DNA of 16,676 bases from a virus (Duplodnaviria; Heunggongvirae; Uroviricota; Caudoviricetes): the IMG/VR virus record IMGVR_UViG_3300014932_000131; one strand, written 5' to 3'. Position 1 is the first letter of the stretch. Every line of letters begins with the position of its first letter. Under the pieces are notes generated by a model that worked only from the letters and a program-made list of their open reading frames with translations, was not told where the DNA came from and ran no database searches. Made by a program: the position numbers and the translations under genes. Below, piece after piece: positions 1 to 16,464 of this stretch.

Positions 1-211
1 ATAATTTCTTTAAATATGCAGATTTCTTATATTCAAATGTTCCAGGTTCATAATCTATATGTTCTTTTCTAAAAAATTTGTTTGTATACTTTTCTTTATT
101 TTCACAATAGTCTTCCACTGAAATACCATATCTATTACAAACATAGTACATTCTTATATACTCTTTTGTTTTAGGTTTTATACCATGGTTATATTTAGAT
201 TTTCCAGCCAC
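1..211 (-). CDS. Partial hypothetical protein (runs off the window); possibly an endonuclease VII-like or homing endonuclease
   Basis: Not in the ORF track. A GTG at 211-209 overlaps the TAG of the upstream gene, and the frame is open to the window edge: (M)AGKSKYNHGIKPKTKEYIRMYYVCNRYGISVEDYCENKEKYTNKFFRKEHIDYEPGTFEYKKSAYLKKL. The ending resembles the 'LKRKYGIT' lead-in of Endo VII-like domains, but no catalytic part is visible. Confidence 0.55.
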   Translation of the reverse strand, partial: MAGKSKYNHGIKPKTKEYIRMYYVCNRYGISVEDYCENKEKYTNKFFRKEHIDYEPGTFEYKKSAYLKKL

Positions 212-498
212 TATTCTGATAAATTTATTTCAAATACAATTGTTGCTGAGCTTTTAATGCTCTTAGATAAGTCTAACTTAATCTGAAATAGGTTATGGAA
301 CTTTAATAATTCCTCTAATAACATCTCATTATACATAGGCAGGGATGCTGCTATTCTAAAATGATATGAATTAGGATTCTTAGTTACTTCCATTATAGAA
401 AGTTCGTCCACAGAATCTATAATTCCTTCTAAATGAGCAAAATATGCAATCTCGTTATCTGGCATCACCTCAGAAAAGAATTTCTTACTAATTTGCAT
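211..498 (-). CDS. Hypothetical protein (95 aa)
   Basis: ORF whose ATG overlaps the upstream stop (TAATG at 498). No recognisable motif. Confidence 0.8.
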   Translation of the reverse strand: MQISKKFFSEVMPDNEIAYFAHLEGIIDSVDELSIMEVTKNPNSYHFRIAASLPMYNEMLLEELLKFHNLFQIKLDLSKSIKSSATIVFEINLSE

Positions 499-914
499 TA
501 AGACTGGGTTAACAAGAATAATGTTTTAGATGCTTCTCCTCCTAAACTTTGTGCAAGATTGGATATGTCTCCATATCCTTTAGCATTTCCAAAGCTTTCT
601 AATTGTTTAGCAAATGTTCTTACATCTGTAACTAGTTTAGAAGGAGCTCCAGGAATATAGTCTGTAAGAGCATCAATTTTATATGCTTTTAATTTTCTTC
701 CCTCATAGCCCATCAATTTTTCTAAGATTTCATCTTTAGCATCTACAATATAATCCCAGAAGTTCAAAGCTGAATGCTCAGCATGACTAGGTGTTTGTAA
801 ATGTAATAAATGAATTTGTTCAAAGAAATAGGACATTTTTGCAGCCACAGTTTCTATTGTTAATTCTCCCCCAGAACTACTCATCATGTCCTGTGGAAAT
901 AATGATTTTGCCAT
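498..914 (-). CDS. Ferritin-like/Dps-like four-helix protein (DUF5856-like)
   Basis: Helical pattern QIHLLHLQTPSHAEHSALNFWDYIVDAKDEILEKLMG, with His/Glu/Asp spacing like phage ferritin-like proteins (HxQT...EHxAL...D...E). Confidence 0.7.
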   Translation of the reverse strand: MAKSLFPQDMMSSSGGELTIETVAAKMSYFFEQIHLLHLQTPSHAEHSALNFWDYIVDAKDEILEKLMGYEGRKLKAYKIDALTDYIPGAPSKLVTDVRTFAKQLESFGNAKGYGDISNLAQSLGGEASKTLFLLTQS

Positions 915-916
915 TA

Positions 917-1042
917 TTAGTGGGTTTCAGGTTCTTCAGTAGGTGCTACAGTTGTAGTAGTAGTTGTTGTTGAAGCTTCAGTTTTGCCAGTGATTTCTTT
1001 CACTTTAGCAATACTAGCTTTTAATTTTTCAAAGTCTGTCAT
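917..1042 (-). CDS. Micro-protein (41 aa) with a poly-Thr tract
   Basis: Below the ORF-track cutoff. Translated by hand as MTDFEKLKASIAKVKEITGKTEASTTTTTTTVAPTEEPETH*. It fills the gap between two minus-strand genes, has an A-rich upstream region, and the Thr run uses mixed ACA/ACT codons. Confidence 0.75.
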   Translation of the reverse strand: MTDFEKLKASIAKVKEITGKTEASTTTTTTTVAPTEEPETH

Positions 1043-1056
1043 TGTTAAAGTTTTAA

Positions 1057-1485
1057 TTAGTCAGCAAATGAAAATGCCTGAAGAGCAGTAGCTCCACTAC
1101 CAACAAATATTGCAGCAGTTGTAGCATTAGGATTAAATACTAAGTCACCACCTACCACAGTAAATTTACCAAGGTATTGTAATGTACTATTGTAATAAGC
1201 AGCTAATTCAGCTACATTATTTACTGTTGTATTATTGGCATAAGTATAGATGTATTGACCATTTCCACCATCACCTTGTATTACAAAGTCTGGATAAGAA
1301 AATGGAAACGAAGTTTGTACATCTACTACCACTGGTGATTGGTCATAGTTACAACATTGGTAACTTTGTATTTGTTGGAAGTTTCCAACTGTAGGCTTCT
1401 TCTTTCTGAAGATAAGACTACCTGCAACTACTCTCCCACTACCATCGTAGCGGACAAATGCTTTAAGATCTCTAAGATTTCCCAT
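1057..1485 (-). CDS. Hypothetical protein (142 aa), possibly virion-associated
   Basis: Basic N-terminal module (LKAFVRYDGSGRVVAGSLIFRKKKP...YQCCN) followed by a beta-rich, aromatic C-terminal part. No signal peptide. Confidence 0.8.
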   Translation of the reverse strand: MGNLRDLKAFVRYDGSGRVVAGSLIFRKKKPTVGNFQQIQSYQCCNYDQSPVVVDVQTSFPFSYPDFVIQGDGGNGQYIYTYANNTTVNNVAELAAYYNSTLQYLGKFTVVGGDLVFNPNATTAAIFVGSGATALQAFSFAD

Positions 1486-1503
1486 TTTTTAAATTTTTTA
1501 TGG

Positions 1504-2520
1504 TTAATAGTTAAGGTTATATAAATTTTTCAATTCCAAAAGTTTTGTAACATAGTAATAAGTACCATATTGTCTTGATTGTTCATTATTAGCTACAGCT
1601 AATATCTGACTATCTGTAAAAGGATCTTTACCTGTGTGGTATGTTCCTTTATAGAACGCAGGATATCCATTCATCTCTTTAGATGTAATCCCTGCATTGT
1701 GAAACAATCCTAATTTTTCTACCTTCTCCATAGGATCTGATGCCCAAGAGAAGTCCATTTCAGGAATGTTTTTAGTTTCATGGTCTTTTAACCATAGGTT
1801 CCATAACACAGCCCACATATCTGCACACCAGCTTTGAAACCCTTTATCTTCATTAGCAAAGAATTGCTTGTTTACATGTTGAAGATATTTACGGATGATA
1901 ATACAATCATTCATAACCTTGTGCCAGAAGTTAGCATCTACATTCTTTAAGAAGTATTGAGCTCCTCCAGAATTTAGATTATTTTCTTCAGCTATTTCTC
2001 TAGTGATTCCTATCAGGCTTGTAAGCTCTGCTAAAATGTCTCTAGTTTTGTATTCTTCCAGCTTTTCTGGCAGAACATCTTTTATTTTACTATCAAAATA
2101 TGAAGCATTAATGTAGCTATTTGTATCAGAAAGATAACAAACATCATCATTTATGTATTGATCTATATTAAATTTATCTGTAAACAGAATATCACAGTCA
2201 CAATAAAACACTGCTTTTGTTATCATATCAGGATGTTCCTGAAAGTATTTCATTAAGACAAATGGACGTAGAACAGGAATATAAACTCCTAATTGTTGAC
2301 TAACATCACCATTGTCTTTATAATAAGCAAAGGTTGCTTCTGGATATAAATCTGATATCTTCTTCCATTTATCACTTTTCTCTCTAAAGCTTGGTGTATA
2401 TACTAATACAATAGCCTTGTCTGAGTGCCCAAGTTTCTTCAAACTTTCTAACCATAAATGTACCTGCCATGTGTAATAGGTATCATCTGGTTGAGCACAG
2501 ATAAACTTTAAATCCTTCAT
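1504..2520 (-). CDS. GT-A fold glycosyltransferase, HPAT/SERGT (GT95/GT96)-like
   Basis: DxD motif (FYCDCDILF). YYTWQVHLW, VLRPFVLMKYF, GGAQYFL and SWCADMWAV parallel motifs I recall from plant hydroxyproline O-arabinosyltransferases and peptidyl-serine galactosyltransferases (YxxWQ, NRP/NKP, DxD/EPD, GWxxEMY). Confidence 0.65.
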   Translation of the reverse strand: MKDLKFICAQPDDTYYTWQVHLWLESLKKLGHSDKAIVLVYTPSFREKSDKWKKISDLYPEATFAYYKDNGDVSQQLGVYIPVLRPFVLMKYFQEHPDMITKAVFYCDCDILFTDKFNIDQYINDDVCYLSDTNSYINASYFDSKIKDVLPEKLEEYKTRDILAELTSLIGITREIAEENNLNSGGAQYFLKNVDANFWHKVMNDCIIIRKYLQHVNKQFFANEDKGFQSWCADMWAVLWNLWLKDHETKNIPEMDFSWASDPMEKVEKLGLFHNAGITSKEMNGYPAFYKGTYHTGKDPFTDSQILAVANNEQSRQYGTYYYVTKLLELKNLYNLNY

Positions 2521-2547
2521 ATATGTAGTTTGTTGGTTTTCTCTTTA

Positions 2548-2700
2548 TTAAGGAGTAGCAGTAGTTGTTGTGGTAGTTGTAGTTTGTGTATTCTTAACTA
2601 CAGCTCCAACTTGGCCAATTAAAGCCTCTAATTGCTTGGATATTTCCCAAAGGAGGTTATCTGTTGTCCCCCAACCTATCTGTCTTGATGGTATTGCCAT
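2548..2700 (-). CDS. Micro-protein (50 aa) with a C-terminal poly-Thr tail
   Basis: Below the ORF-track cutoff. Translated by hand as MAIPSRQIGWGTTDNLLWEISKQLEALIGQVGAVVKNTQTTTTTTTTATP*. It is the first gene after the promoter at 2720-2749 and ends in tandem TAA TAA. Confidence 0.8.
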   Translation of the reverse strand: MAIPSRQIGWGTTDNLLWEISKQLEALIGQVGAVVKNTQTTTTTTTTATP

Positions 2701-2719
2701 GATATAAAAAATTAATGTT

Positions 2720-2749
2720 CAAAGATATGTCGTTTTTGACTATAATCAA
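2720..2749 (-). promoter_or_regulatory. Bacteroidota housekeeping-sigma promoter (-33/-7)
   Basis: On the minus strand, TTG (2749-2747), a 19-nt spacer, then TATCTTTG (2727-2720) match TTG-N19-21-TAnnTTTG. The motif lies 20 nt upstream of the ATG at 2700. Confidence 0.7.
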
Positions 2750-2770: not shown

Positions 2771-2798
2771 AATCAAATTAATTATAATTAAATTGATT
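2771..2798. repeat. 28-bp near-perfect AT-rich palindrome
   Basis: AATCAAATTAATTATAATTAAATTGATT is self-complementary except for one mismatched pair. It lies between the stop of the beta-barrel-like gene and the downstream promoter. Confidence 0.7.
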
Positions 2799-4047
2799 AG
2801 AGATTTATTTTACTTCCCACCACCATGAATACCAATGAAGGCATACTTGGATTAGTGCTAAGACTTGTCTTTAATCCTGTATTAAATTTAAATCTCTTGG
2901 TTATCGAATAGTCTATATTGAAGCCTGTAAGGAACGTCATATCTTCACTTATTGTAAAGGTGTTATCTTTTGTTCCATAAGTTACAGGGCTCCCAGATAT
3001 ATATAAATCAGGAGATATAGTTAGTTTTCTATTGATACTGAATGGTTTAGTATAAAATAATAATAGAGAATGTGTTGTTGTATATTGTTTTTTGTTTAGT
3101 CCATAACTTGCAGAAGCTATACTAAGTGTCATGTTACCTCCTGTTACCCCCCAGTTACCCATTGGATAGATGTAAGCATAAGTTATAAACCCAAATACAT
3201 TACCAAAAGCATAAGCCACGGTTGCACCATAGTTAGATATACTTTGTAGTTTACCATCTACTATATTCATCTGTGTATATCTACTAGATAGAGCGAATTG
3301 TTGAAGATTACTCCATACCATTCCTGTAAGTCCCCAGCTTACGTCACCTGCCATAGATGATTGTGATATACCACTAGTTACTATTAAGTTAACTGAACCA
3401 TCTAAAGTTTGTCCACCAGTAAGATCAGAGTTAAATAGTATGGGATTCATTTTAGCTCCACCACCCTTTCCACCTGAGGACTTACCCCCTCCCCCCTTGC
3501 TTTCAGATTTGCTTTCTGATTTTGATTCTGACTTGCTCTCTCCTGAACTACTAGATTCACTTTTACTTTCTCCAGAACTTGAACTACTAGAGCTTGATTC
3601 AGAACTGGTTGTAGAAGAAGAACTTGATGCTGAACTAGCAGCAGCAGAACTAGCACTAGAAGCTGCTGATGATGCTGCAGAGCTTGTAGCAGCTCCAACA
3701 GCTGAACTAGCTGCTGAACTAACAGCTGAGCTTACTGCAGAGGATACAGCAGAGGCTGTAATTTGAGTAGTAGTTGATGCACTTTGTGCAACAGAACAAG
3801 GAGATAATGCTCTATATTGTTCATAAACTTGGTTAATCCATATTTGAAATGCTCCATTTGACACATCAGCAGATGTGAAAGTTCTTGACTTATTGTAGAA
3901 TACAATAGTAGTGCTTCCAGTAATAGGTATACTAAAAACACTAACAACCTTTGTACAGGGATCAATAAATGTCTGTATTAGAGTTTGAGAATAAGTTATT
4001 ATTGGTAGTATTACTACTAATATAACCATTAATATAAACCTTCTCAT
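2797..4047 (-). CDS. Secreted protein with a Ser/Ala-rich linker and a C-terminal outer-membrane beta-barrel-like domain
   Basis: Signal peptide MRRFILMVILVVILPIITYS|Q. A ~110-aa N-terminal domain is followed by a ~100-aa S/A/E/K/G low-complexity linker. The C-terminal half has alternating hydrophobic/aromatic beta-strands and ends ...FMVVGSKINL. Confidence 0.7.
   Translation of the reverse strand: MRRFILMVILVVILPIITYSQTLIQTFIDPCTKVVSVFSIPITGSTTIVFYNKSRTFTSADVSNGAFQIWINQVYEQYRALSPCSVAQSASTTTQITASAVSSAVSSAVSSAASSAVGAATSSAASSAASSASSAAASSASSSSSTTSSESSSSSSSSGESKSESSSSGESKSESKSESKSESKGGGGKSSGGKGGGAKMNPILFNSDLTGGQTLDGSVNLIVTSGISQSSMAGDVSWGLTGMVWSNLQQFALSSRYTQMNIVDGKLQSISNYGATVAYAFGNVFGFITYAYIYPMGNWGVTGGNMTLSIASASYGLNKKQYTTTHSLLLFYTKPFSINRKLTISPDLYISGSPVTYGTKDNTFTISEDMTFLTGFNIDYSITKRFKFNTGLKTSLSTNPSMPSLVFMVVGSKINL
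3447..3770 (-). repeat. Coding low-complexity repeat (ASSAVSSAVSS..., SSSSSSS, ESKS x n, GGKGGG)
   Basis: Read directly from the translation of 2797..4047. Codons are degenerate, so this is not an exact tandem DNA repeat. Boundaries are approximate. Confidence 0.8.
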
Positions 4048-7588: not shown

Positions 7589-8134
7589 TTATTTTGTGTC
7601 TAATAGTTTGTTAACCAATGAGTTACAAGCAATTTCTCTGAGCTTTTGTTTAGTTTCTTCTGAATGTTTCTTACCAGTATTTATAACTCTAAGTTTTTCT
7701 TTTGTTTCTTCAGAAAGAACTTTACCCTTATGACGTTCGCTTATTTTTAACTTTGTTTCCTCAGAATGACTTCCTCTTTTTTTTCCTAATTTAGCAAGTC
7801 TAAGTTTTTCTTTATGCTCTGGAGATAACGTTTTGCCTAACCAAGTTCCTTTTGTTCCAGGGTTAGAAGCTCCTCCATCTGCCATATTAACTAATAGTCC
7901 TTCTTTCAAATCAAATCTACCATAATCTTTGATCATACCAATTTCTACTATTCTAGCTTCATCTATGGTGCAACCTTCTATAAGTATATCTACAGCATAC
8001 CCTACTTTATTGACTATATTTTTCCAATACTTATTTCTACTAGATTTATTATATGCTCTTCCTTTATTGGCACCTATACCTATGTAGAATACAGTATTGT
8101 CATCTAACCTTCTATGTTGATATACTACTGCCAT
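7589..8134 (-). mobile_element. Free-standing GIY-YIG-type homing endonuclease with NUMOD3 repeats
   Basis: N-terminal VVY...FYIGIG...GRAY...E...LVN (GIY-YIG variant) and four NUMOD3-like repeats (LSPEHKEKLR, HSEETKLKIS, LSEETKEKLR, HSEETKQKLR). It is wedged with TAA-ATG junctions into an otherwise secreted-protein operon. Confidence 0.85.
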
Positions 8135-11136: not shown

Positions 11137-11167
11137 TTGTTTATTTCATACAAAAGTAGTACATTTG
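11137..11167 (+). promoter_or_regulatory. Bacteroidota promoter for the glycosyltransferase operon
   Basis: Plus strand TTG (11137-11139), 20-nt spacer, TACATTTG (11160-11167); the ATG is at 11185. Confidence 0.7.
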
Positions 11168-11181
11168 TTGCAAATATCCAA
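11151..11181 (-). promoter_or_regulatory. Bacteroidota promoter for the DUF6165-like gene
   Basis: Minus strand TTG (11181-11179), 20-nt spacer, TACTTTTG (11158-11151); the ATG is at 11128. Confidence 0.7.
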
Positions 11182-11184
11182 CAG

Positions 11185-12123
11185 ATGAAACCAGTTTGTT
11201 TAGACTTGTCACAATGTAATGGTCTTGGTGATTTAATCTGTGCCACTCCCACTATCAAAAAACTGTCTGAAAGCTATGGCCAAAAGATAACCATCCTCTC
11301 TCAGATGCCTGAGCTATTTAAAATGAATTCCTATGTAGAGAAGAGCTATAAAGCTGCTTCAGTTGACAAGGATTACTTTACAACTCATTATATCATGCAC
11401 AACTCTTTCTATCTAGTAGGTAAGAAAGATGAGCGTGGTATAGAGATGAAACATAACATGATGGATATTAGACAGTTCCATGCTATACATCTAGGCTTTA
11501 TGCTTGGGCAAGATGAACTAAGATGTTACTACAGACCTACAGAACCTAAGAAGAATTTTATTCATGAGAAGTATATAGTTATACACCCTGTCAATAGCTG
11601 GCCTAATAGAACTTGGTCACAAGATAATTGGGTAAAGTTAATTACATCTTTAACAGATATGGGATATACAGTTGTGGCTGTGGGTAAGGATAGTAGTGAG
11701 ACAGGGTTCTTTAATGTACAGAAACCTGTACATGATTTAGAAGGATCTAAAGTAATTAACTTAATGAACCAAACATCTATATCTGAGACATGGCATTTAA
11801 TAAATGATGCTAAAGCTGTCATCACTATGGATTCTGGTATACTACATTTAGCAGGTACAACACAAACATATATCATTGAATTAGGATCTCCTATCAATCC
11901 TGAATTTAGAACACCTTATAGAGTGGGAGTACAAGGATTTAAACACTATTATATTGGAGGAAGCTGTACCTTATTTTGTTCTTCTAATATGAAATATGCT
12001 CTTGAGTATTGGCCTACAATAGATTCTGTACAGCCATTGATTGGATGCTTAGAAAAGAAAGAAACCTTTGAATGTCATCCTACAGTGGATAAAGTAATAG
12101 AATGTGTAAAAGTAAATATATGA
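11185..12123 (+). CDS. Glycosyltransferase family 9 (ADP-heptose:LPS heptosyltransferase-like, GT-B)
   Basis: GLGDLICATPTIKKL, IVIHPVNSWPNRTW and ITMDSGILHLAG are typical GT9 motifs. Start revised from the track's TTG at 11137 (which is the -33 promoter element) to the ATG at 11185. Confidence 0.85.
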   Translation: MKPVCLDLSQCNGLGDLICATPTIKKLSESYGQKITILSQMPELFKMNSYVEKSYKAASVDKDYFTTHYIMHNSFYLVGKKDERGIEMKHNMMDIRQFHAIHLGFMLGQDELRCYYRPTEPKKNFIHEKYIVIHPVNSWPNRTWSQDNWVKLITSLTDMGYTVVAVGKDSSETGFFNVQKPVHDLEGSKVINLMNQTSISETWHLINDAKAVITMDSGILHLAGTTQTYIIELGSPINPEFRTPYRVGVQGFKHYYIGGSCTLFCSSNMKYALEYWPTIDSVQPLIGCLEKKETFECHPTVDKVIECVKVNI

Positions 12124-14783
12124 AAAAACTATTAATAATCACTCCTCACCTATCAACTGGAGGAGCTCCACAGGTAACTGTAAACAAAGTGGAACTATTA
12201 AGGGACCACTTTGAAATCAAGGTGATAGAGTATTCATTCCTAGCATGGTCATTTGTTGTACAACGTTTAAGGATCATTGACATGCTTACAGAAGGAGTTA
12301 ACTTCCATTCTCTAGGAGAAAATAAGTATGATAAACTTGTGCAAATTATGCAACAGTTTAGTCCAGATGTAGTTGTGATGGAAGAGTTCCCTGAGATGTT
12401 CATGGATGATAAGATTACAGCATTCATCTATTCAAAGACTAGAACCTGGAAGATATCTGAGACTACGCATGATAGCTCGTTTAATCCTAAGCATAAGAAA
12501 TGGATGCCTGATAGCTTTGTATTTGTAAGCTCTTATAACATATTTAAGTATGTACATTTAGATATACCCATGGATGTAATTGAATATCCTATAGATAAGA
12601 AATCTAGAAACAAGGTGGAAAGACAAAAACAATTTCAATTAGATCCTGCTTATAAACACTTTGTCACTGTGGGACTATTTACACCACGTAAGAACCAAGC
12701 CTATGCATTTGAATTAGGTAAGTATCTTAAGAACCACAAGGTGAAGTTCCATTTTCTAGGTAACCAAGCAGGTAATTTTGCAGATTATTGGCAGCCACTG
12801 ATGGTTGACAAACCAGATAACTGTGTTGTATGGGGAGAGCGTAATGATGTGAACACATTCCTAGAAGCATGTGATGTATTCTTCTTCCCATCTAAAGGAG
12901 ACAGGGGCAATAAGGAGCTTAACCCAATAGCCATTAAAGAGGCCATGGAATATGATGACTTAATCAAAGTAATGTACAATCTAGATGTATATTGTAACAA
13001 GTATAATGATGAGGAGAATGTAGTTTATTTAACTGGTGATATCAGTAGTGATGCTACCAATTTAATCAAAAAATTAAACCTAGATGTATTAGACGAGGAG
13101 TGTATCATCTTGGGCACCTATCCTAATATTAAAGACAGAGTGCAATGGACCAAGGATACCATCAATAGTCTTAAGCCATTGGGTAGAAAGATTATTCTAT
13201 TGTCTCACTATCCTGTAGACCAGGACATACAATGTATGGTGGATTATTACATATACGATGCATATAACCCTCTAACTCACCATAGCTATTACACTAGATT
13301 TTATAATGATAGAGATGACTATTTTGCTGAGATTAACATCAATGGTTTGAAGGATAGTAACCAATCCTTGACTGTCTTAACTAATATATTCAATGGTGCT
13401 AAGGCTGCTAAAGAGCTTGGGTTCAAGAGATTCTTCTACACTACGTATGATGTTATATTAGATGAGAGAGATATCCCTGCAGTGAATGATGCATTTAAGA
13501 CAGATAAGAAACTTTGTGCTGCTACACTACCTACACCACAGGGTAAGGGAATTCAGACCAATGGTATTATGTTTGATACAGACTTCTTTATAAAAGAGAT
13601 GGATGATGTACGTACACCAGAAGAGTGGAATGAAGTGTGTAAGCGTAGAAGATGTGAGAACTATTTAGAAGACTACTTATCTAAGGTGATATTTAGTTTC
13701 AATCCAAATGATATACAATTAGTTACTAATGATAAGGATACTCTATTGATACACAGTGGGTTAGGTGTTGCATCTAATAGTGAATACTATTCTATTATTC
13801 CTGTAGAAGGAAAAGCAAACTTTTACATGTTCTATTTCTTTACATATAACAGAGACAATAGAAAGATATATGTAGCCATTGGAGATGATATGTCTAAAAG
13901 GATTGTTCCTTCACAAAGACATGAATGGTCTTATGAGTTTGAATTCAAAGGAGAGCCCATTATTGTAAAAATGGATTTCTATGATGGAGATGATTGTTAT
14001 AAGATAGAGGAATTCAAATTAAACAAAGATAATCTACATCTATATAATAACACTGGTAGGTTTAGATGGAAGAAAACAAAAAGACCTAGAATAAAATTAG
14101 TTCACATACAAACAACACTAAATGATGAAAGAGAACAAGCAAGCAGAACTTCCCTTGAACAAGTTAAAGACCATGGATGGGAATATATCCTACACACTAA
14201 CGAGCCCTATAAGTCATTACCACCATCATATAACTGCATCAGACCCAGTTGTGTTTCAATGGAACTCTTCAATGAGGAGCAAGTTCAACAGTATGGTACA
14301 GCACTTACCCCAGCACATTATGGATGCTATGAAGCATTCAAGAATGCCATCTTAAGTGAGTTTCATGATTGTGACTTCTTAATGGTGTGTGAGGGAGATT
14401 GTATCATTGAGACAGACATACACTTTTTCGTACGAAAAATTGAGCAATGTGCACACTTAATGGGACCAAATGGTATCAACTATATGTCTTTTGGAGACAA
14501 GGATACATTAGAATATGGCTGGCCTCAGAGTCCTGTTATTAAAGATATCAATGAGGATATGTATGTTACAGATCACATCATAGGTTTACAATCTATTATG
14601 TTCCCTATATCTACAGCTGATTATTTAAAAAGTACATTAAGAAAACATAAGTGGGATGCTTCTGATATGTATTTTAATAATATCTTTGCAGGTCCACAAA
14701 TGGGCATAGTTAAGAAAAGACTTACCACCCAAGCAGATGGATTTTCTTTAATAGACAATATGCAAAAAACATTCAGGAAATGA
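12120..14783 (+). CDS. Multidomain glycosyltransferase: N-terminal GT4-like (GT-B), central uncharacterised GT-like domain, C-terminal GT25-like domain
   Basis: GT4-like: HLSTGGAPQV, VGLFTPRKNQ, FFFPS...ELNPIAIKEA. Central domain from ~13100: IILGTYP...IILLSHYP, FFYTTYDVIL. C-terminal domain from ~14085: LTPAHYGCYEAF, LMVCEGDCII. Start revised to the ATG at 12120 (ATGA overlap with the GT9 stop). Confidence 0.8.
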   Translation: MKKLLIITPHLSTGGAPQVTVNKVELLRDHFEIKVIEYSFLAWSFVVQRLRIIDMLTEGVNFHSLGENKYDKLVQIMQQFSPDVVVMEEFPEMFMDDKITAFIYSKTRTWKISETTHDSSFNPKHKKWMPDSFVFVSSYNIFKYVHLDIPMDVIEYPIDKKSRNKVERQKQFQLDPAYKHFVTVGLFTPRKNQAYAFELGKYLKNHKVKFHFLGNQAGNFADYWQPLMVDKPDNCVVWGERNDVNTFLEACDVFFFPSKGDRGNKELNPIAIKEAMEYDDLIKVMYNLDVYCNKYNDEENVVYLTGDISSDATNLIKKLNLDVLDEECIILGTYPNIKDRVQWTKDTINSLKPLGRKIILLSHYPVDQDIQCMVDYYIYDAYNPLTHHSYYTRFYNDRDDYFAEININGLKDSNQSLTVLTNIFNGAKAAKELGFKRFFYTTYDVILDERDIPAVNDAFKTDKKLCAATLPTPQGKGIQTNGIMFDTDFFIKEMDDVRTPEEWNEVCKRRRCENYLEDYLSKVIFSFNPNDIQLVTNDKDTLLIHSGLGVASNSEYYSIIPVEGKANFYMFYFFTYNRDNRKIYVAIGDDMSKRIVPSQRHEWSYEFEFKGEPIIVKMDFYDGDDCYKIEEFKLNKDNLHLYNNTGRFRWKKTKRPRIKLVHIQTTLNDEREQASRTSLEQVKDHGWEYILHTNEPYKSLPPSYNCIRPSCVSMELFNEEQVQQYGTALTPAHYGCYEAFKNAILSEFHDCDFLMVCEGDCIIETDIHFFVRKIEQCAHLMGPNGINYMSFGDKDTLEYGWPQSPVIKDINEDMYVTDHIIGLQSIMFPISTADYLKSTLRKHKWDASDMYFNNIFAGPQMGIVKKRLTTQADGFSLIDNMQKTFRK

Positions 14784-15454
14784 ACATAGATGTAATCATA
14801 TTAACAGATAGTTCTGATGTAGCTCTTACACAACGTACAATAGATACATTACATGATAGTGCTATTCATGAAAACTTTTGTGTACAGCTTGTAGATTCAG
14901 GATCTAATGATGTAAATAGATATAAAGGATGGACTAACTACATACATCCTGAAAGCTCATTCAACTATAATAAGTTCTTGAACATAGCCATTAAGTATTG
15001 TACAGAAGACTGGTTGGTTATATCTAATGATGATGTTAGTTATGAAAAAGGATGGTTTTCTGAAATAATGGATGTACATAAAATCAGACCTGACATAGAA
15101 GCCTTCTCTCCCAAAGATCCATTCTTATATGCTAAATACTTTTCTAGGTATTTTATAGGGGGCAATAGTTCCTATCATGAATCATATACTGTTACAGAAG
15201 CTCTTCAGGGTTGGTGCACTGTGATTAAGAAATGTGCATTAGATAAAATCCTACCATTTGATGAGATGTTTGATATGTACTATCAGGACAATGACTATGC
15301 TGAGAGACTAAAGCAGGCAGGTATTAAACATGCTCTTGTGAGACATTCTATTGTATGTCATATGGAAACATTAAATGTAGGACAGATAAGTGAAGCTAAG
15401 TCTAGAAAGCTTAGAATAGATGAAATTAAATTTAGAAACAAATGGAATCAATAA
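14780..15454 (+). CDS. Glycosyltransferase family 2 (GT-A)
   Basis: IDVIILT, VQLVDSGS, FNYNKFLNIA, WLVISNDDV (DxD-like) and FDEMFDMYYQDND. Confidence 0.85.
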   Translation: MNIDVIILTDSSDVALTQRTIDTLHDSAIHENFCVQLVDSGSNDVNRYKGWTNYIHPESSFNYNKFLNIAIKYCTEDWLVISNDDVSYEKGWFSEIMDVHKIRPDIEAFSPKDPFLYAKYFSRYFIGGNSSYHESYTVTEALQGWCTVIKKCALDKILPFDEMFDMYYQDNDYAERLKQAGIKHALVRHSIVCHMETLNVGQISEAKSRKLRIDEIKFRNKWNQ

Positions 15455-16464
15455 AATCAGTACATGTTGCTACAGGACTAATAACTATACCACCAAATGG
15501 ATGGGGTGCTGTAGAAAGACTTACATGGGAATATAAGATAGCTCTTGAGAAACTTGGACATGGTGTAGATATTAGATACATGAATGAGTTGGAGAAGTGG
15601 CCCAATACAATTGTGCACACACATTTAGCTAATCAAGCTCTTGATTGTATAGATAAGGGTATTCCCTATGTGTATTCTTTACATGATCATCATACAGAAT
15701 GGTATGGAAAAGATAGCTGGGTGTTTAAACAAAACCTAGAAGCTATGAAGAGTAGTATTATATCCTTCACTCATGCTGAATATTTGGTAGACTATTTTGA
15801 TGCTGTAGATAAACTATTCTATCTACCACATGGGGCTAATACAGATTTCTTTGTTCCTAATTATGAACCAAAACCACATGCATTATTTATGCTTGCTAAT
15901 AATGGATTAGCAGGTGATTCAGGATTTGATAGAAAAGGATTTAGATGGGGGATAGAAGCAGCTGAAGAACTAGACTTACCCATCACTATAGCTGGACATC
16001 CTAACAATCAAAAGTTCTTTGATATTCATTCAGAGCTATTGCAATATAAAAAGTTAACTTTAAAGTTAACAAACCCTACAGATGAAGAGACTAGAGAGTT
16101 ATATCAGTCTCACACTATCTTCTTACATCCATCTATGCTAGAAGCAGGACATCCTAATCTAACACTTATGGAAGCCACAGCTTGTGGTATTCCTATTGTA
16201 GGAACTTATAGAGGTAGTAAACCTATACCTGGAATGCATGTTCTTGATAAGATTACAAAAGAATCTGTAATAGATGGCATCATAGATGTTATGCATAACT
16301 ATGACGAACGTAGACAAGATATATTTAACAAGCGTACAGACTATAGTTGGGATGAAGTGGGTAAGATATTAGCTAAATACTATTACAATATTCTTAAAAT
16401 TAATGAGGGATATACATCAGAAAAAACAAGACAATTATATATAAACGCATATGATAACTTATAA
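15442..16464 (+). CDS. Glycosyltransferase family 4 (GT-B, retaining)
   Basis: IPPNGWGAVE, RKGF and FLHPSMLEAGHPNLTLMEATACGIPIVG (E-x7-E-type motif region). Confidence 0.88.
   Translation: MESIKSVHVATGLITIPPNGWGAVERLTWEYKIALEKLGHGVDIRYMNELEKWPNTIVHTHLANQALDCIDKGIPYVYSLHDHHTEWYGKDSWVFKQNLEAMKSSIISFTHAEYLVDYFDAVDKLFYLPHGANTDFFVPNYEPKPHALFMLANNGLAGDSGFDRKGFRWGIEAAEELDLPITIAGHPNNQKFFDIHSELLQYKKLTLKLTNPTDEETRELYQSHTIFLHPSMLEAGHPNLTLMEATACGIPIVGTYRGSKPIPGMHVLDKITKESVIDGIIDVMHNYDERRQDIFNKRTDYSWDEVGKILAKYYYNILKINEGYTSEKTRQLYINAYDNL

Follow-up and report, generated by a model that had tools for sequence, protein, structure and literature searches.

What does a phage gain from an enzyme gene set between two tiny reading frames that each carry a run of threonines? 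This arrangement lies in a stretch of 16,676 nucleotides (the window), which comes from a crAss-like phage and gave no match when the whole of it was compared by megablast with GenBank phages. The initial annotation, made from the sequence, had proposed that the phage O-glycosylates threonine runs on its own small proteins. Our analysis supports this as a probable, candidate activity, on the evidence of the fold of the enzyme and its co-occurrence with threonine tags.

Gene content of the locus

The genes and sites on which the argument turns are the following:

2720..2727, minus strand: candidate Bacteroidota-type -7 promoter box TATCTTTG, weak, in the 96 nt that precede the 50-aa ORF
2548..2700, minus strand: 50-aa micro-protein ending TQ-T8-ATP, with a conserved head of about 35 aa (MAIPSRQIGW..LLWxISKQLE..); proposed acceptor
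1504..2520, minus strand: 338-aa predicted soluble GT-A glycosyltransferase (phrog_4417) of HPAT/SERGT-like fold; proposed Thr O-glycosyltransferase
2191..2199, minus strand: DxD motif D108-C-D110 of the 338-aa enzyme, the presumed metal and nucleotide-sugar site, its catalytic role being that of GT-A enzymes generally
1813..1836, minus strand: Q229-SWCADMW block, the most conserved in the enzyme family
1057..1485, minus strand: 142-aa protein with an N-terminal domain of about 48 aa (..LKAFVRYDGSGRVVAGSLIFRKKKP..CCN), without a Thr run
917..1042, minus strand: 41-aa micro-ORF with S-T7-VAPT; second proposed acceptor, least conserved of the four genes
498..914, minus strand: 138-aa DUF5856/Dps-like protein (PF19174 at E 2.4e-6, under the cut-off; phrog_858)
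211..498, minus strand: 95-aa protein downstream of the cassette, with no family match

The four ORFs described in the initial annotation (50, 338, 142 and 41 aa) are all present at these positions. They are close-packed on the minus strand, separated in that order by gaps of 27, 18 and 14 nt. The unit proposed for 917-2749 does not end at 917. The DUF5856/Dps-like gene begins 2 nt past the stop of the 41-aa ORF, and both this gene and the 95-aa gene after it (median identity 77%) accompany the cassette in 75 of 80 relatives. A single promoter placed at 2720-2749 is unsupported, as a sigma-70 scan finds no minus-strand site there. Across the window, the number of sigma-70 promoter and terminator matches is that expected by chance. 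A TAnnTTTG box does lie at 2720-2727 on the minus strand, yet the window has no excess of this motif (22 found vs 24 expected). A six-frame scan for Thr runs, defined as at least six consecutive Thr or Ser residues with at least five Thr, found two in the whole 16.7-kb window, both flanking the enzyme.

Judged by their sequences, the micro-ORFs appear to be genuine genes. Of 80 related viral contigs, 78 carry the 50-aa family, whose alignment consists of an invariant head followed by one or two T7-8-[AV][AP]P modules. The head is under purifying selection, with pN/pS of 0.31 and dN/dS of about 0.17 over 30 codons. Codons within the Thr runs are a mixture of ACT, ACA and ACC, so the runs are maintained as protein sequence. 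Of the four genes, the 41-aa ORF has the least to support it: homologues that can be recognised, with Thr-rich tails, are confined to a few of the nearest relatives (e.g. L003 and L005), and a strict regular expression for the family retrieved 3 loci only, so that either the family is narrow or the pattern too tight. The N-domain of the 142-aa protein is present in 80/80 relatives, most of which have a poly-Thr tail or linker directly after it. The versions in relatives include tandem paralogues and T-tailed proteins 60-90 aa long; the window copy has a different C-terminal domain.

Fold and kinship of the enzyme

The 338-aa enzyme matches phrog_4417 (E 2e-53), a family of unknown function, and a Pfam search with it returned nothing at E<=1, GT8 (PF01501) and GT6 included. 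Four motifs that the initial annotation had lined up with those of plant HPAT and SERGT enzymes occur in the order given there, YYTWQ at residues 15-19, LRPF at 84-87, CDCD at 107-110 and SWCADMW at 230-236, and all are conserved in the enzyme's own family. D108 and D110, located after model strand 103-106, are invariant across the 62-sequence alignment A1. Q229 is invariant in the same 62 sequences, and D234 is conserved in at least 90% of them and invariant in a 14-sequence alignment. The Q229-SWCADMW block was the pattern used to retrieve relatives from bacterial genomes, in a scan that employed a narrower alignment, A2, in place of the too diverse A1. The enzyme has no hydrophobic segment (maximum 19-residue hydropathy 0.88), and its model is globular from residue 4.

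An alignment-based AlphaFold (AF2) model of the enzyme, used instead of a single-sequence prediction with a pLDDT of 38, reached a pLDDT of 97.1 and has a GT-A fold. Its best reviewed structural match is Arabidopsis SERGT1 (E 3.4e-10, TM 0.64), followed by eight HPAT-family enzymes (TM 0.58-0.61), among them HPAT1/2/3, PLENTY, RDN1/2 and NOD3, with the GT8 enzymes glycogenin and galactinol synthase below them (TM 0.40-0.51). In the AFDB clusters, HPAT-like domain proteins dominate after the family's own members. ESM Atlas HPAT clusters match the model at TM up to 0.71, and PF23452 is found in 10-58% of the members of the neighbouring Atlas clusters. The fold comparison suggested for 1504..2520 thus places SERGT1 and the HPATs as the top named matches, above GT8 and GT6, and neither a GT8 enzyme nor a DNA transferase came out best.

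In the PDB, at least 210 chains match the model at E<=0.001 (Foldseek), the top ones all GT-A. The best of these are retaining GT-A enzymes, with glycogenin at Z 14.0, and they include the protein-glycosylating enzymes GlyE (Z 12.8) and PBCV-1 A64R (Z 11.2). A profile search of PDB sequences with the enzyme family gave chance matches only, and the Pfam HPAT model PF23452 has no match to the window enzyme and matches 2 of 62 family members weakly (best E 0.012). Because this model misses the enzyme, the kinship with GT95/GT96 is one of predicted structures (TM ~0.6-0.7), and membership of the HPAT/SERGT group is structural only. On the model, the best account of the 338-aa protein is that it is a DxD-type GT-A glycosyltransferase, soluble and cytoplasmic, whose fold belongs to the retaining GT8/GT6-like group.

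Comparison with characterized enzymes indicates what such a protein might do. SERGT1/SGT1 (GT96) and HPAT/RDN/PLENTY (GT95; PF23452), the best named structural matches over residues 2-333 (TM 0.58-0.71), have the DxD-type GT-A fold in common with the phage enzyme, in whose sequence the order of motifs proposed for them is also seen. They put the first sugar on hydroxy-amino acids of repetitive mucin- or extensin-like peptides, and the same is proposed here. The plant enzymes differ in that they are Golgi type II membrane proteins, whereas the phage enzyme is soluble; their acceptor is Hyp or Ser, that of the phage presumably Thr; and sequence identity is 12-14%. The closest solved folds are GT8/GT6 enzymes (glycogenin, LgtC, alpha-1,3-galactosyltransferase) and GlyE (Z 12-14, 210-245 aligned residues). 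Two of these, glycogenin and GlyE (the latter from the pathway for the pneumococcal serine-rich-repeat protein), have proteins or protein-linked glycans as substrates, although the TM of the GT8/GT6 group to the phage enzyme (0.40-0.51) is under that of HPAT/SERGT. A64R of chlorovirus PBCV-1 is a virus-encoded cytoplasmic GT-A enzyme that helps to glycosylate the virus's own major capsid protein, but this is a eukaryotic giant virus and the fold match is more distant. The capsid glycans of PBCV-1 are N-linked at atypical sites.

The enzyme occurs in crAss-like phages, Firmicutes siphophages, jumbo phages and Bacteroidota prophages. Its carriers, 77 GenBank phage records and 774 cluster representatives, include laboratory or dairy phages of Enterococcus, Lactobacillus, Lactococcus, Staphylococcus and Clostridium. 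Some relatives are fused to GT6, GT2, DXD-sugar or methyltransferase domains.

Joint presence and absence of enzyme and threonine tag

Within the lineage of the window phage, all 80 relatives have a same-strand Thr-run ORF at most 2 kb from the enzyme. Upstream of the enzyme, 72 such ORFs lie within the first kb, and downstream 100; farther out there are almost none. Co-occurrence with Thr-run micro-ORFs in other genomes, anticipated in the initial annotation, was seen in 13 of 14 enzyme lineages (<50% identity), where a same-strand Thr-run ORF lies within 3 kb and mostly 0-25 nt away. Pooled over loci, 347 Thr runs fall in ~1018 kb near the gene vs 12 in ~1918 kb of far flanks, a ~54-fold difference in density, although loci within one lineage share synteny and these raw linkage counts overstate independence. 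One viral cluster of 14, which includes two giant-virus bins, has no Thr runs near the enzyme. Chromosomal two-domain homologues in Sphingobacterium, Pedobacter, Chitinophaga and Elizabethkingia adjoin GT2 and GT11 genes and have no neighbouring Thr-run ORF; the enzyme family is therefore not always tied to poly-Thr.

In Firmicutes phages, the tagged proteins include a major head protein (phrog_10, E 3e-63), a major tail protein (phrog_117) and a virion structural protein, and all 113 tags in 70 loci are C-terminal. In phiFL1A, 9183, iLp84, bIL285 and phiCTP1 the enzyme gene comes directly behind or close to structural genes, following that of the capsid or of the tail tube, and in 67 loci it begins 1 nt past the capsid gene. 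Orthologous tail-tube proteins have a C-terminal Thr tail in 12/12 cases in which the enzyme gene follows and in 0/14 in which it does not, both states being found at two identity tiers. The same holds for orthologous capsid proteins, which have the tail in 67/67 cases with the enzyme vs 0/5 without; neither comparison has a discordant case. Because enzyme and Thr tails come and go together, these phages very probably sugar-coat proteins of their own.

The micro-proteins of the crAss-like lineage could nevertheless serve another end. They might be intracellular or released glycopeptides (RiPP-like products, decoys or primers) and no part of the virion, which would confine the virion reading to the Firmicutes phages. 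Their tiny size (41-61 aa) and a conserved head resembling a leader peptide fit such a role, and so do ESM Atlas neighbours of the enzyme fused to PqqD, a peptide-binding domain that serves peptide recognition in RiPP pathways. A LanC-like gene also adjoins a Chitinophaga homologue, in a weak match (E 7.6e-5) under the cut-off. Yet relatives join the same N-terminal heads through Thr linkers to large C-terminal domains, which is a modular pattern of structural proteins, and in a complete relative of the lineage Thr tracts occur in the crAss muzzle protein and a tail fibre, among others. Searches of Pfam, PHROG and the relatives' gene content also found no protease, cyclase or exporter in the conserved cassette. 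We consider the glycopeptide reading unlikely, while regarding it as the best placed of the alternatives. A complex prediction for the enzyme with the 50-aa protein scored 0.01, which weighs neither for nor against binding.

A slightly less probable alternative concerns the reaction itself. The enzyme might extend a glycan begun by a host or other phage transferase, or act on a non-protein acceptor, with the Thr runs being flexible linkers. Further transferases (GT9-like, GT1 and GT2) are indeed encoded at 11137-16464 in the window and also in relatives, 37 of 80 of which have an 893-aa GT1 protein. The cellular homologues described above likewise lie in multi-transferase loci without Thr-run neighbours, and the closest solved folds include the sugar-acceptor enzymes LgtC and GT6. 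The Firmicutes phages argue against this: five small ones with tagged capsid or tail proteins gave no GT2 or GT1 match, which leaves the present enzyme as their only recognisable glycosyltransferase. Moreover, the joint gain and loss of tag and enzyme in orthologous proteins is hard to explain if the runs are linkers, and the named enzymes with the best structural matches use peptide hydroxyls as their direct acceptors.

The position of the gene in Firmicutes phages also bears on whether the enzyme's target is the host envelope (teichoic acid, LPS or capsule), with a change of serotype or a block to superinfection as the result. Phage transferases commonly alter host surface glycans (reviewed in PMC9863714), and many carriers are temperate Firmicutes phages. 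The gene lies, however, within the operon of late structural genes, directly behind the tail-tube gene or 1 nt behind the capsid gene, and away from the lysogeny module; the enzyme is without a membrane segment, and the strict link to the Thr tag is left unexplained, all of which makes this reading very improbable. Least credible of all is a DNA-base glycosyltransferase of TAGT/JGT type that decorates hydroxymethylated bases: GT-A transferases related to Fringe and GREB1 do glycosylate 5hmC/5hmU in phages and kinetoplastids (PMC7968844), but no ThyA-like hydroxymethylase (PF00303; search control positive in 10/14 genomes) was found in five complete relatives (113-119 kb, 99-100% complete), GREB1 is not among the best 30 Swiss-Prot structural matches listed, the gene sits within structural modules of small temperate phages, and this reading offers no reason for the Thr-tag linkage, a Tet_JBP search carrying no weight as its control was silent.

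A proposed glycosylation of phage proteins and its precedents

The reading that we favour as probable, from sequences and models, is a phage-encoded O-glycosylation of Thr7-8 tags on the phage's own proteins. It draws together what the analysis shows, namely the modelled fold, a DxD motif that does not vary, the linkage in the genomes, and the fact that enzyme and tag are present or absent together. Late in infection, the soluble enzyme would take a nucleotide sugar and put the first sugar on threonine hydroxyls, Thr being the presumed acceptor and initiation, not extension, the presumed step. Its targets would be short poly-Thr tags on phage proteins, typically T7-8 followed by [AV][AP]P. Beside its enzyme gene, the window phage encodes two tagged proteins, the 50-aa and 41-aa micro-proteins. 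Targets in relatives would include T-tailed paralogues of the 142-aa protein and the tail-fibre and muzzle proteins with Thr tracts, and in Firmicutes siphophages the tags would be the C-terminal tails of major capsid and tail-tube proteins. The micro-proteins would presumably end up on the virion, where the coat may serve in shielding, solubility or adhesion.

The nearest precedent comes from mycobacteriophages. As summarised in papers citing Freeman et al. 2023 (PMC12619734, PMC12363180, PMC13445384), transferases of phages Che8, Corndog and Myrna O-glycosylate the C-termini of these phages' own capsid and tail-tube proteins, the same two proteins that are Thr-tailed in the Firmicutes relatives. 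A transferase gene in or beside the structural genes is likewise found in Firmicutes carriers of the present enzyme. A Ser/Thr-rich C-terminal acceptor on capsid or tail-tube proteins is found in these relatives too; the window itself has tagged micro-proteins, and its capsid gene lies outside the window. The hosts in those summaries are Actinobacteria, whereas here the phages are crAss-like phages, Firmicutes siphophages and jumbo phages. Unlike in the mycobacteriophage system, sugars would be accepted here by a discrete T7-8 homopolymer, a tag that is found also on free-standing micro-proteins and as inter-domain linkers. Glycosylation is reported there as demonstrated and is proposed here.

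These accounts qualify the initial annotation, which was aware of no described phage version of such an enzyme-substrate cassette, since mycobacteriophage virion glycosylation is a precedent; the enzyme family and the poly-Thr tag, for their part, appear undescribed in the searchable literature. A search that left most subscription journals outside its reach found no publication linking the enzyme family, GT95/GT96 or poly-Thr tails to phage glycosylation. GT95/GT96 enzymes were earlier described as plant-specific (PMC4738400).

A broader scheme is offered tentatively and is rather doubtful. The T7-8 tag and the soluble HPAT/SERGT-like transferase may form a portable cassette that moves between unrelated phages and turns surface-exposed protein ends and linkers into a mucin-like glycan brush. 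The crAss-like micro-proteins, each a 35-aa anchor with a glyco-tag, might then form a glycan fur on the particle, and the enzyme family could be a prokaryotic or viral sister of plant GT95/GT96.

If the proposed glycosylation is true, the phages that glycosylate their own particles would no longer be a few mycobacteriophages but a large and varied group with crAss-like phages among them. It would give phrog_4417 a function, solve the puzzle of the poly-Thr tails that capsid and tail-tube proteins carry, and provide a simple genetic pair of tag and enzyme for glyco-engineering phage surfaces. The hypothesis is directly testable with cultured phages and standard mass spectrometry. The structural tie to the extensin-glycosylating enzymes of plants raises the question of the origin of GT95/GT96. 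A glycan coat could alter antibody recognition, stability and adhesion, and would be relevant to phage therapy and to the ecology of phages in mucus and biofilms.

The gene cassette and its conservation

Features of the window, with coordinates and strand
2797-4047, minus: 416-aa protein; signal-like hydrophobic segment at the N-terminus, plus a Ser/Ala/Lys/Gly-rich low-complexity tract of ~110 aa
2548-2700, minus: 50-aa ORF, first in the gene string, C-terminus TQ-T8-ATP
1504-2520, minus: 338-aa ORF (the enzyme), 27 nt after the 50-aa ORF
1057-1485, minus: 142-aa ORF, 18 nt after the 338-aa ORF
917-1042, minus: 41-aa ORF with S-T7-VAPT, 14 nt after the 142-aa ORF
498-914, minus: DUF5856/Dps-like gene, 2 nt after the 41-aa ORF
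211-498, minus: 95-aa gene, next after the DUF5856/Dps-like gene
7589-8134, minus: NUMOD3-containing homing endonuclease (phrog_314), an ordinary phage gene
8700-9305, minus: GH19-type endolysin (phrog_181, E 5e-69), an ordinary phage gene
11137-16464, plus (opposite to the cassette): four more transferase genes, encoding a GT9-like protein of 328 aa (PF01075, E 5e-17), a GT1-domain protein of 893 aa, a GT2 (224 aa) and a GT1 (340 aa)

The four ORFs that the initial annotation placed in the 917-2749 region are present on the minus strand with tight spacing (27, 18 and 14 nt), and its enzyme motifs (YYTWQ, LRPF, CDCD and SWCADMW) were all found in the order claimed. The promoter it proposed at 2720-2749 is unsupported: a sigma-70 scan stayed at chance level, with no minus-strand site there. 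A Bacteroidota-type TAnnTTTG box occurs at 2720-2727 on the minus strand, a motif not enriched across the window. Judged by spacing, the string is presumably co-transcribed, and the unit extends beyond 917 to the DUF5856/Dps-like and 95-aa genes. A six-frame scan of the whole 16.7 kb detected no Thr runs ([TS]≥6 with ≥5 T) beyond those of the 50-aa and 41-aa ORFs.

Comparison of 80 related loci defines a conserved core comprising the enzyme and the N-domain of the 142-aa family (80/80 each), the 50-aa family (78/80), and the DUF5856-like and 95-aa genes (75/80 each), while the remaining window genes vary. The 416-aa protein, whose C-terminal half is rich in beta-strand-like sequence, was found in only 10/80 relatives and therefore lies outside the cassette. 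It could represent another type of acceptor, or alternatively a host-surface protein. Conservation of the plus-strand transferases ranges from 5/80 to 37/80, and these could serve glycan extension or host-envelope modification.

Members of the 50-aa family have an invariant head (dN/dS ~0.17) followed by one or two modules of T7-8 and [AV][AP]P, with mixed codons in the Thr runs. The 142-aa family often occurs in tandem copies, and in most relatives its head leads directly into a Thr tail, or into a Thr linker that joins it to a larger domain. Throughout the micro-ORF tails of loci L003-L082, the runs keep a strikingly constant length of 7-8 residues before [AV][AP]P, the module being repeated once or twice and not lengthened; Firmicutes tails are similar, with a T6-[KR]P-T7 pattern. 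As read from sequence, this uniformity suggests a defined recognition unit. Within 1 kb of the enzyme we counted 72 and 100 Thr-run ORFs on its two sides, and almost none further out, but since the 80 loci share ancestry, such clustering within the lineage alone proves little.

No DNA-level match of the window was found among GenBank phages. A 65-88% identical enzyme is encoded by 284 IMG/VR contigs, several of which are complete at 113-119 kb. The lineage is placed among the crAss-like phages by one of these complete relatives, in which Pfam models identify a crAss muzzle protein (PF25731, E 8e-25) as well as tail ring protein 1 (PF24228). The closest genome-collection matches lie on contigs assigned to Bacteroidota MAG bins, namely a 112-kb Sediminibacterium contig (69% identity) and contigs of Cytophagales and Saprospiraceae. 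This points to a Bacteroidota host, binning being weak evidence. (ACN)6 tracts in the complete relatives are strictly strand-specific, and in the one inspected, G003, they also occur in a tail fibre and a ~150-aa region of the muzzle protein. This region forms the C-terminus of the G003 muzzle homologue (L182:7009-12063; 1684 aa) and consists nearly throughout of Thr/Ser runs set apart by short Pro/Ala spacers, and the tail-fibre and small proteins adjoining its gene start or finish with Thr runs.

Fold and relatives of the enzyme

The enzyme has no Pfam match and belongs to phrog_4417 (E 2e-53; annotated function unknown in PHROGs), and an exhaustive search of its family yielded 774 cluster representatives. 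Nine residues are invariant in a 62-sequence alignment (Y80, D108, D110, Y136, Q229, F257, H274, K291 and Y323), from which AlphaFold produced a model of pLDDT 97.1.

Structural matches of the enzyme model, by collection
Reviewed AlphaFold models: SERGT1 best (E 3.4e-10, TM 0.64); next HPAT1/2/3, PLENTY, RDN1/2 and NOD3 (TM 0.58-0.61); lower, GT8 and Gnt1 (TM 0.40-0.51)
AFDB clusters: members of the family itself, followed by 'HPAT-like domain' proteins
ESM Atlas: HPAT clusters (TM 0.71); a PqqD-fused bacterial cluster (TM 0.67)
PDB: glycogenin (Z 14.0), LgtC (13.6), GlyE (12.8), GT6 (11.8), PBCV-1 A64R (11.2)

The likeness to plant HPAT/SERGT enzymes suggested by the initial annotation is thus borne out in fold, with SERGT1 and the HPATs ranking above GT8 among reviewed models. 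The PDB matches are retaining GT-A enzymes, with no HPAT structure among them. As the Pfam HPAT model matches only 2/62 relatives, and weakly, we describe the modelled enzyme as HPAT/SERGT-like in fold, not as a demonstrated family member. Some relatives carry fusions to GT6, GT2, DXD-sugar or methyltransferase domains, a domain content that would fit a role in glycan building. The ESM Atlas neighbours include bacterial clusters, mostly Pseudomonadota, in which a PqqD peptide-recognition domain is fused to the HPAT-like domain, and the GenBank note of Enterococcus phage 9183 ORF095 mentions PqqD homology. The PqqD fusions hint at peptide-directed relatives in RiPP-like pathways.

Linkage of enzyme and poly-Thr tag

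The expected co-occurrence of enzyme homologues with Thr-run ORFs was recovered across lineages. Clustering the enzymes of 181 loci at 50% identity gave 14 clusters, and 13 of these have a same-strand Thr-run ORF within 3 kb, usually 0-25 nt away. Pooled density is ~54-fold higher near the enzyme (347 runs in ~1018 kb) than far from it (12 in ~1918 kb). Tagged neighbours are virion proteins: PHROGs matches identify a major head protein (phrog_10, E 3e-63), a major tail protein (phrog_117) and one further virion structural protein, and in the GenBank phages phiFL1A, iLp84, bIL285 and phiCTP1 the tag occurs on capsid, decoration-like and tail-tube proteins. In Chryseobacterium phage MA9V-3, two Thr-linker proteins lie immediately upstream of the enzyme, and all 113 tags in 70 Firmicutes loci fall within 8 residues of the C-terminus.

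The only viral cluster lacking a nearby Thr-run ORF is L177-L180, which includes two contigs labelled giant-virus bins. Cellular homologues (L192-L215), found on chromosomes of Sphingobacterium, Pedobacter, Chitinophaga, Elizabethkingia and Mucilaginibacter, have two domains and span 450-710 aa; in one, the second domain is Glyco_transf_7C-like. The cellular homologues, those of Sphingobacteriia and Chitinophagia included, have no Thr-run neighbours, and the genes beside them encode GT2, GT11, thioredoxin-like and weakly LanC-like proteins. The family is not always tied to poly-Thr, and its cellular members provide a natural comparison group.

The idea that tag and enzyme would work as one unit draws its strongest support from their joint presence and absence. 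A probe made from the Thr-free part of the phiFL1A tail-tube protein retrieved 26 orthologues (65-100% identity): all 12 with an adjacent enzyme gene end in a T6-x-x-T6-7 tail, versus none of the 14 without it. Tailed and tailless orthologues are each present at two identity tiers, so gain or loss happened independently at least twice. For the capsid protein, whose stop codon lies 1 nt before the enzyme gene, 67 sequences have enzyme and tail, 5 have neither and none is discordant. The naive Fisher probability is ~1e-7 for each protein, the sequences being related.

We consider it probable that the enzyme O-glycosylates the Thr tags; from computation we infer the sugar, linkage, acceptor residue and micro-protein location. 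A live alternative is that the micro-proteins are RiPP-like or decoys rather than virion parts. The enzyme might also extend a glycan rather than initiate it, a possible role since the window encodes further transferases, although five small Firmicutes phages have tagged proteins and no GT2 or GT1 match. Modification of the host envelope is improbable, fitting poorly with where the gene lies, with the absence of any membrane segment from the enzyme and with the tag linkage. A DNA-base transferase is less credible still, as no ThyA-like hydroxymethylase was detected in five complete relatives and small temperate phages carry the gene inside structural operons.

Relation to known phage glycosylation

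Phage self-glycosylation is established in mycobacteriophages Che8, Corndog and Myrna, where glycans are reported at the C-terminal ends of the capsid and tail-tube subunits (as cited in PMC12619734, PMC12363180 and PMC13445384). HPATs have been described as plant-specific (PMC4738400). In the searchable literature we found no paper connecting phages with phrog_4417, GT95/GT96 or poly-Thr tails, in line with the earlier impression that no phage version of this enzyme-substrate cassette had been described. The principle proposed here is the one already known from mycobacteriophages; what sets this system apart is a different enzyme family, a distinctive homopolymeric tag and a much wider host range.
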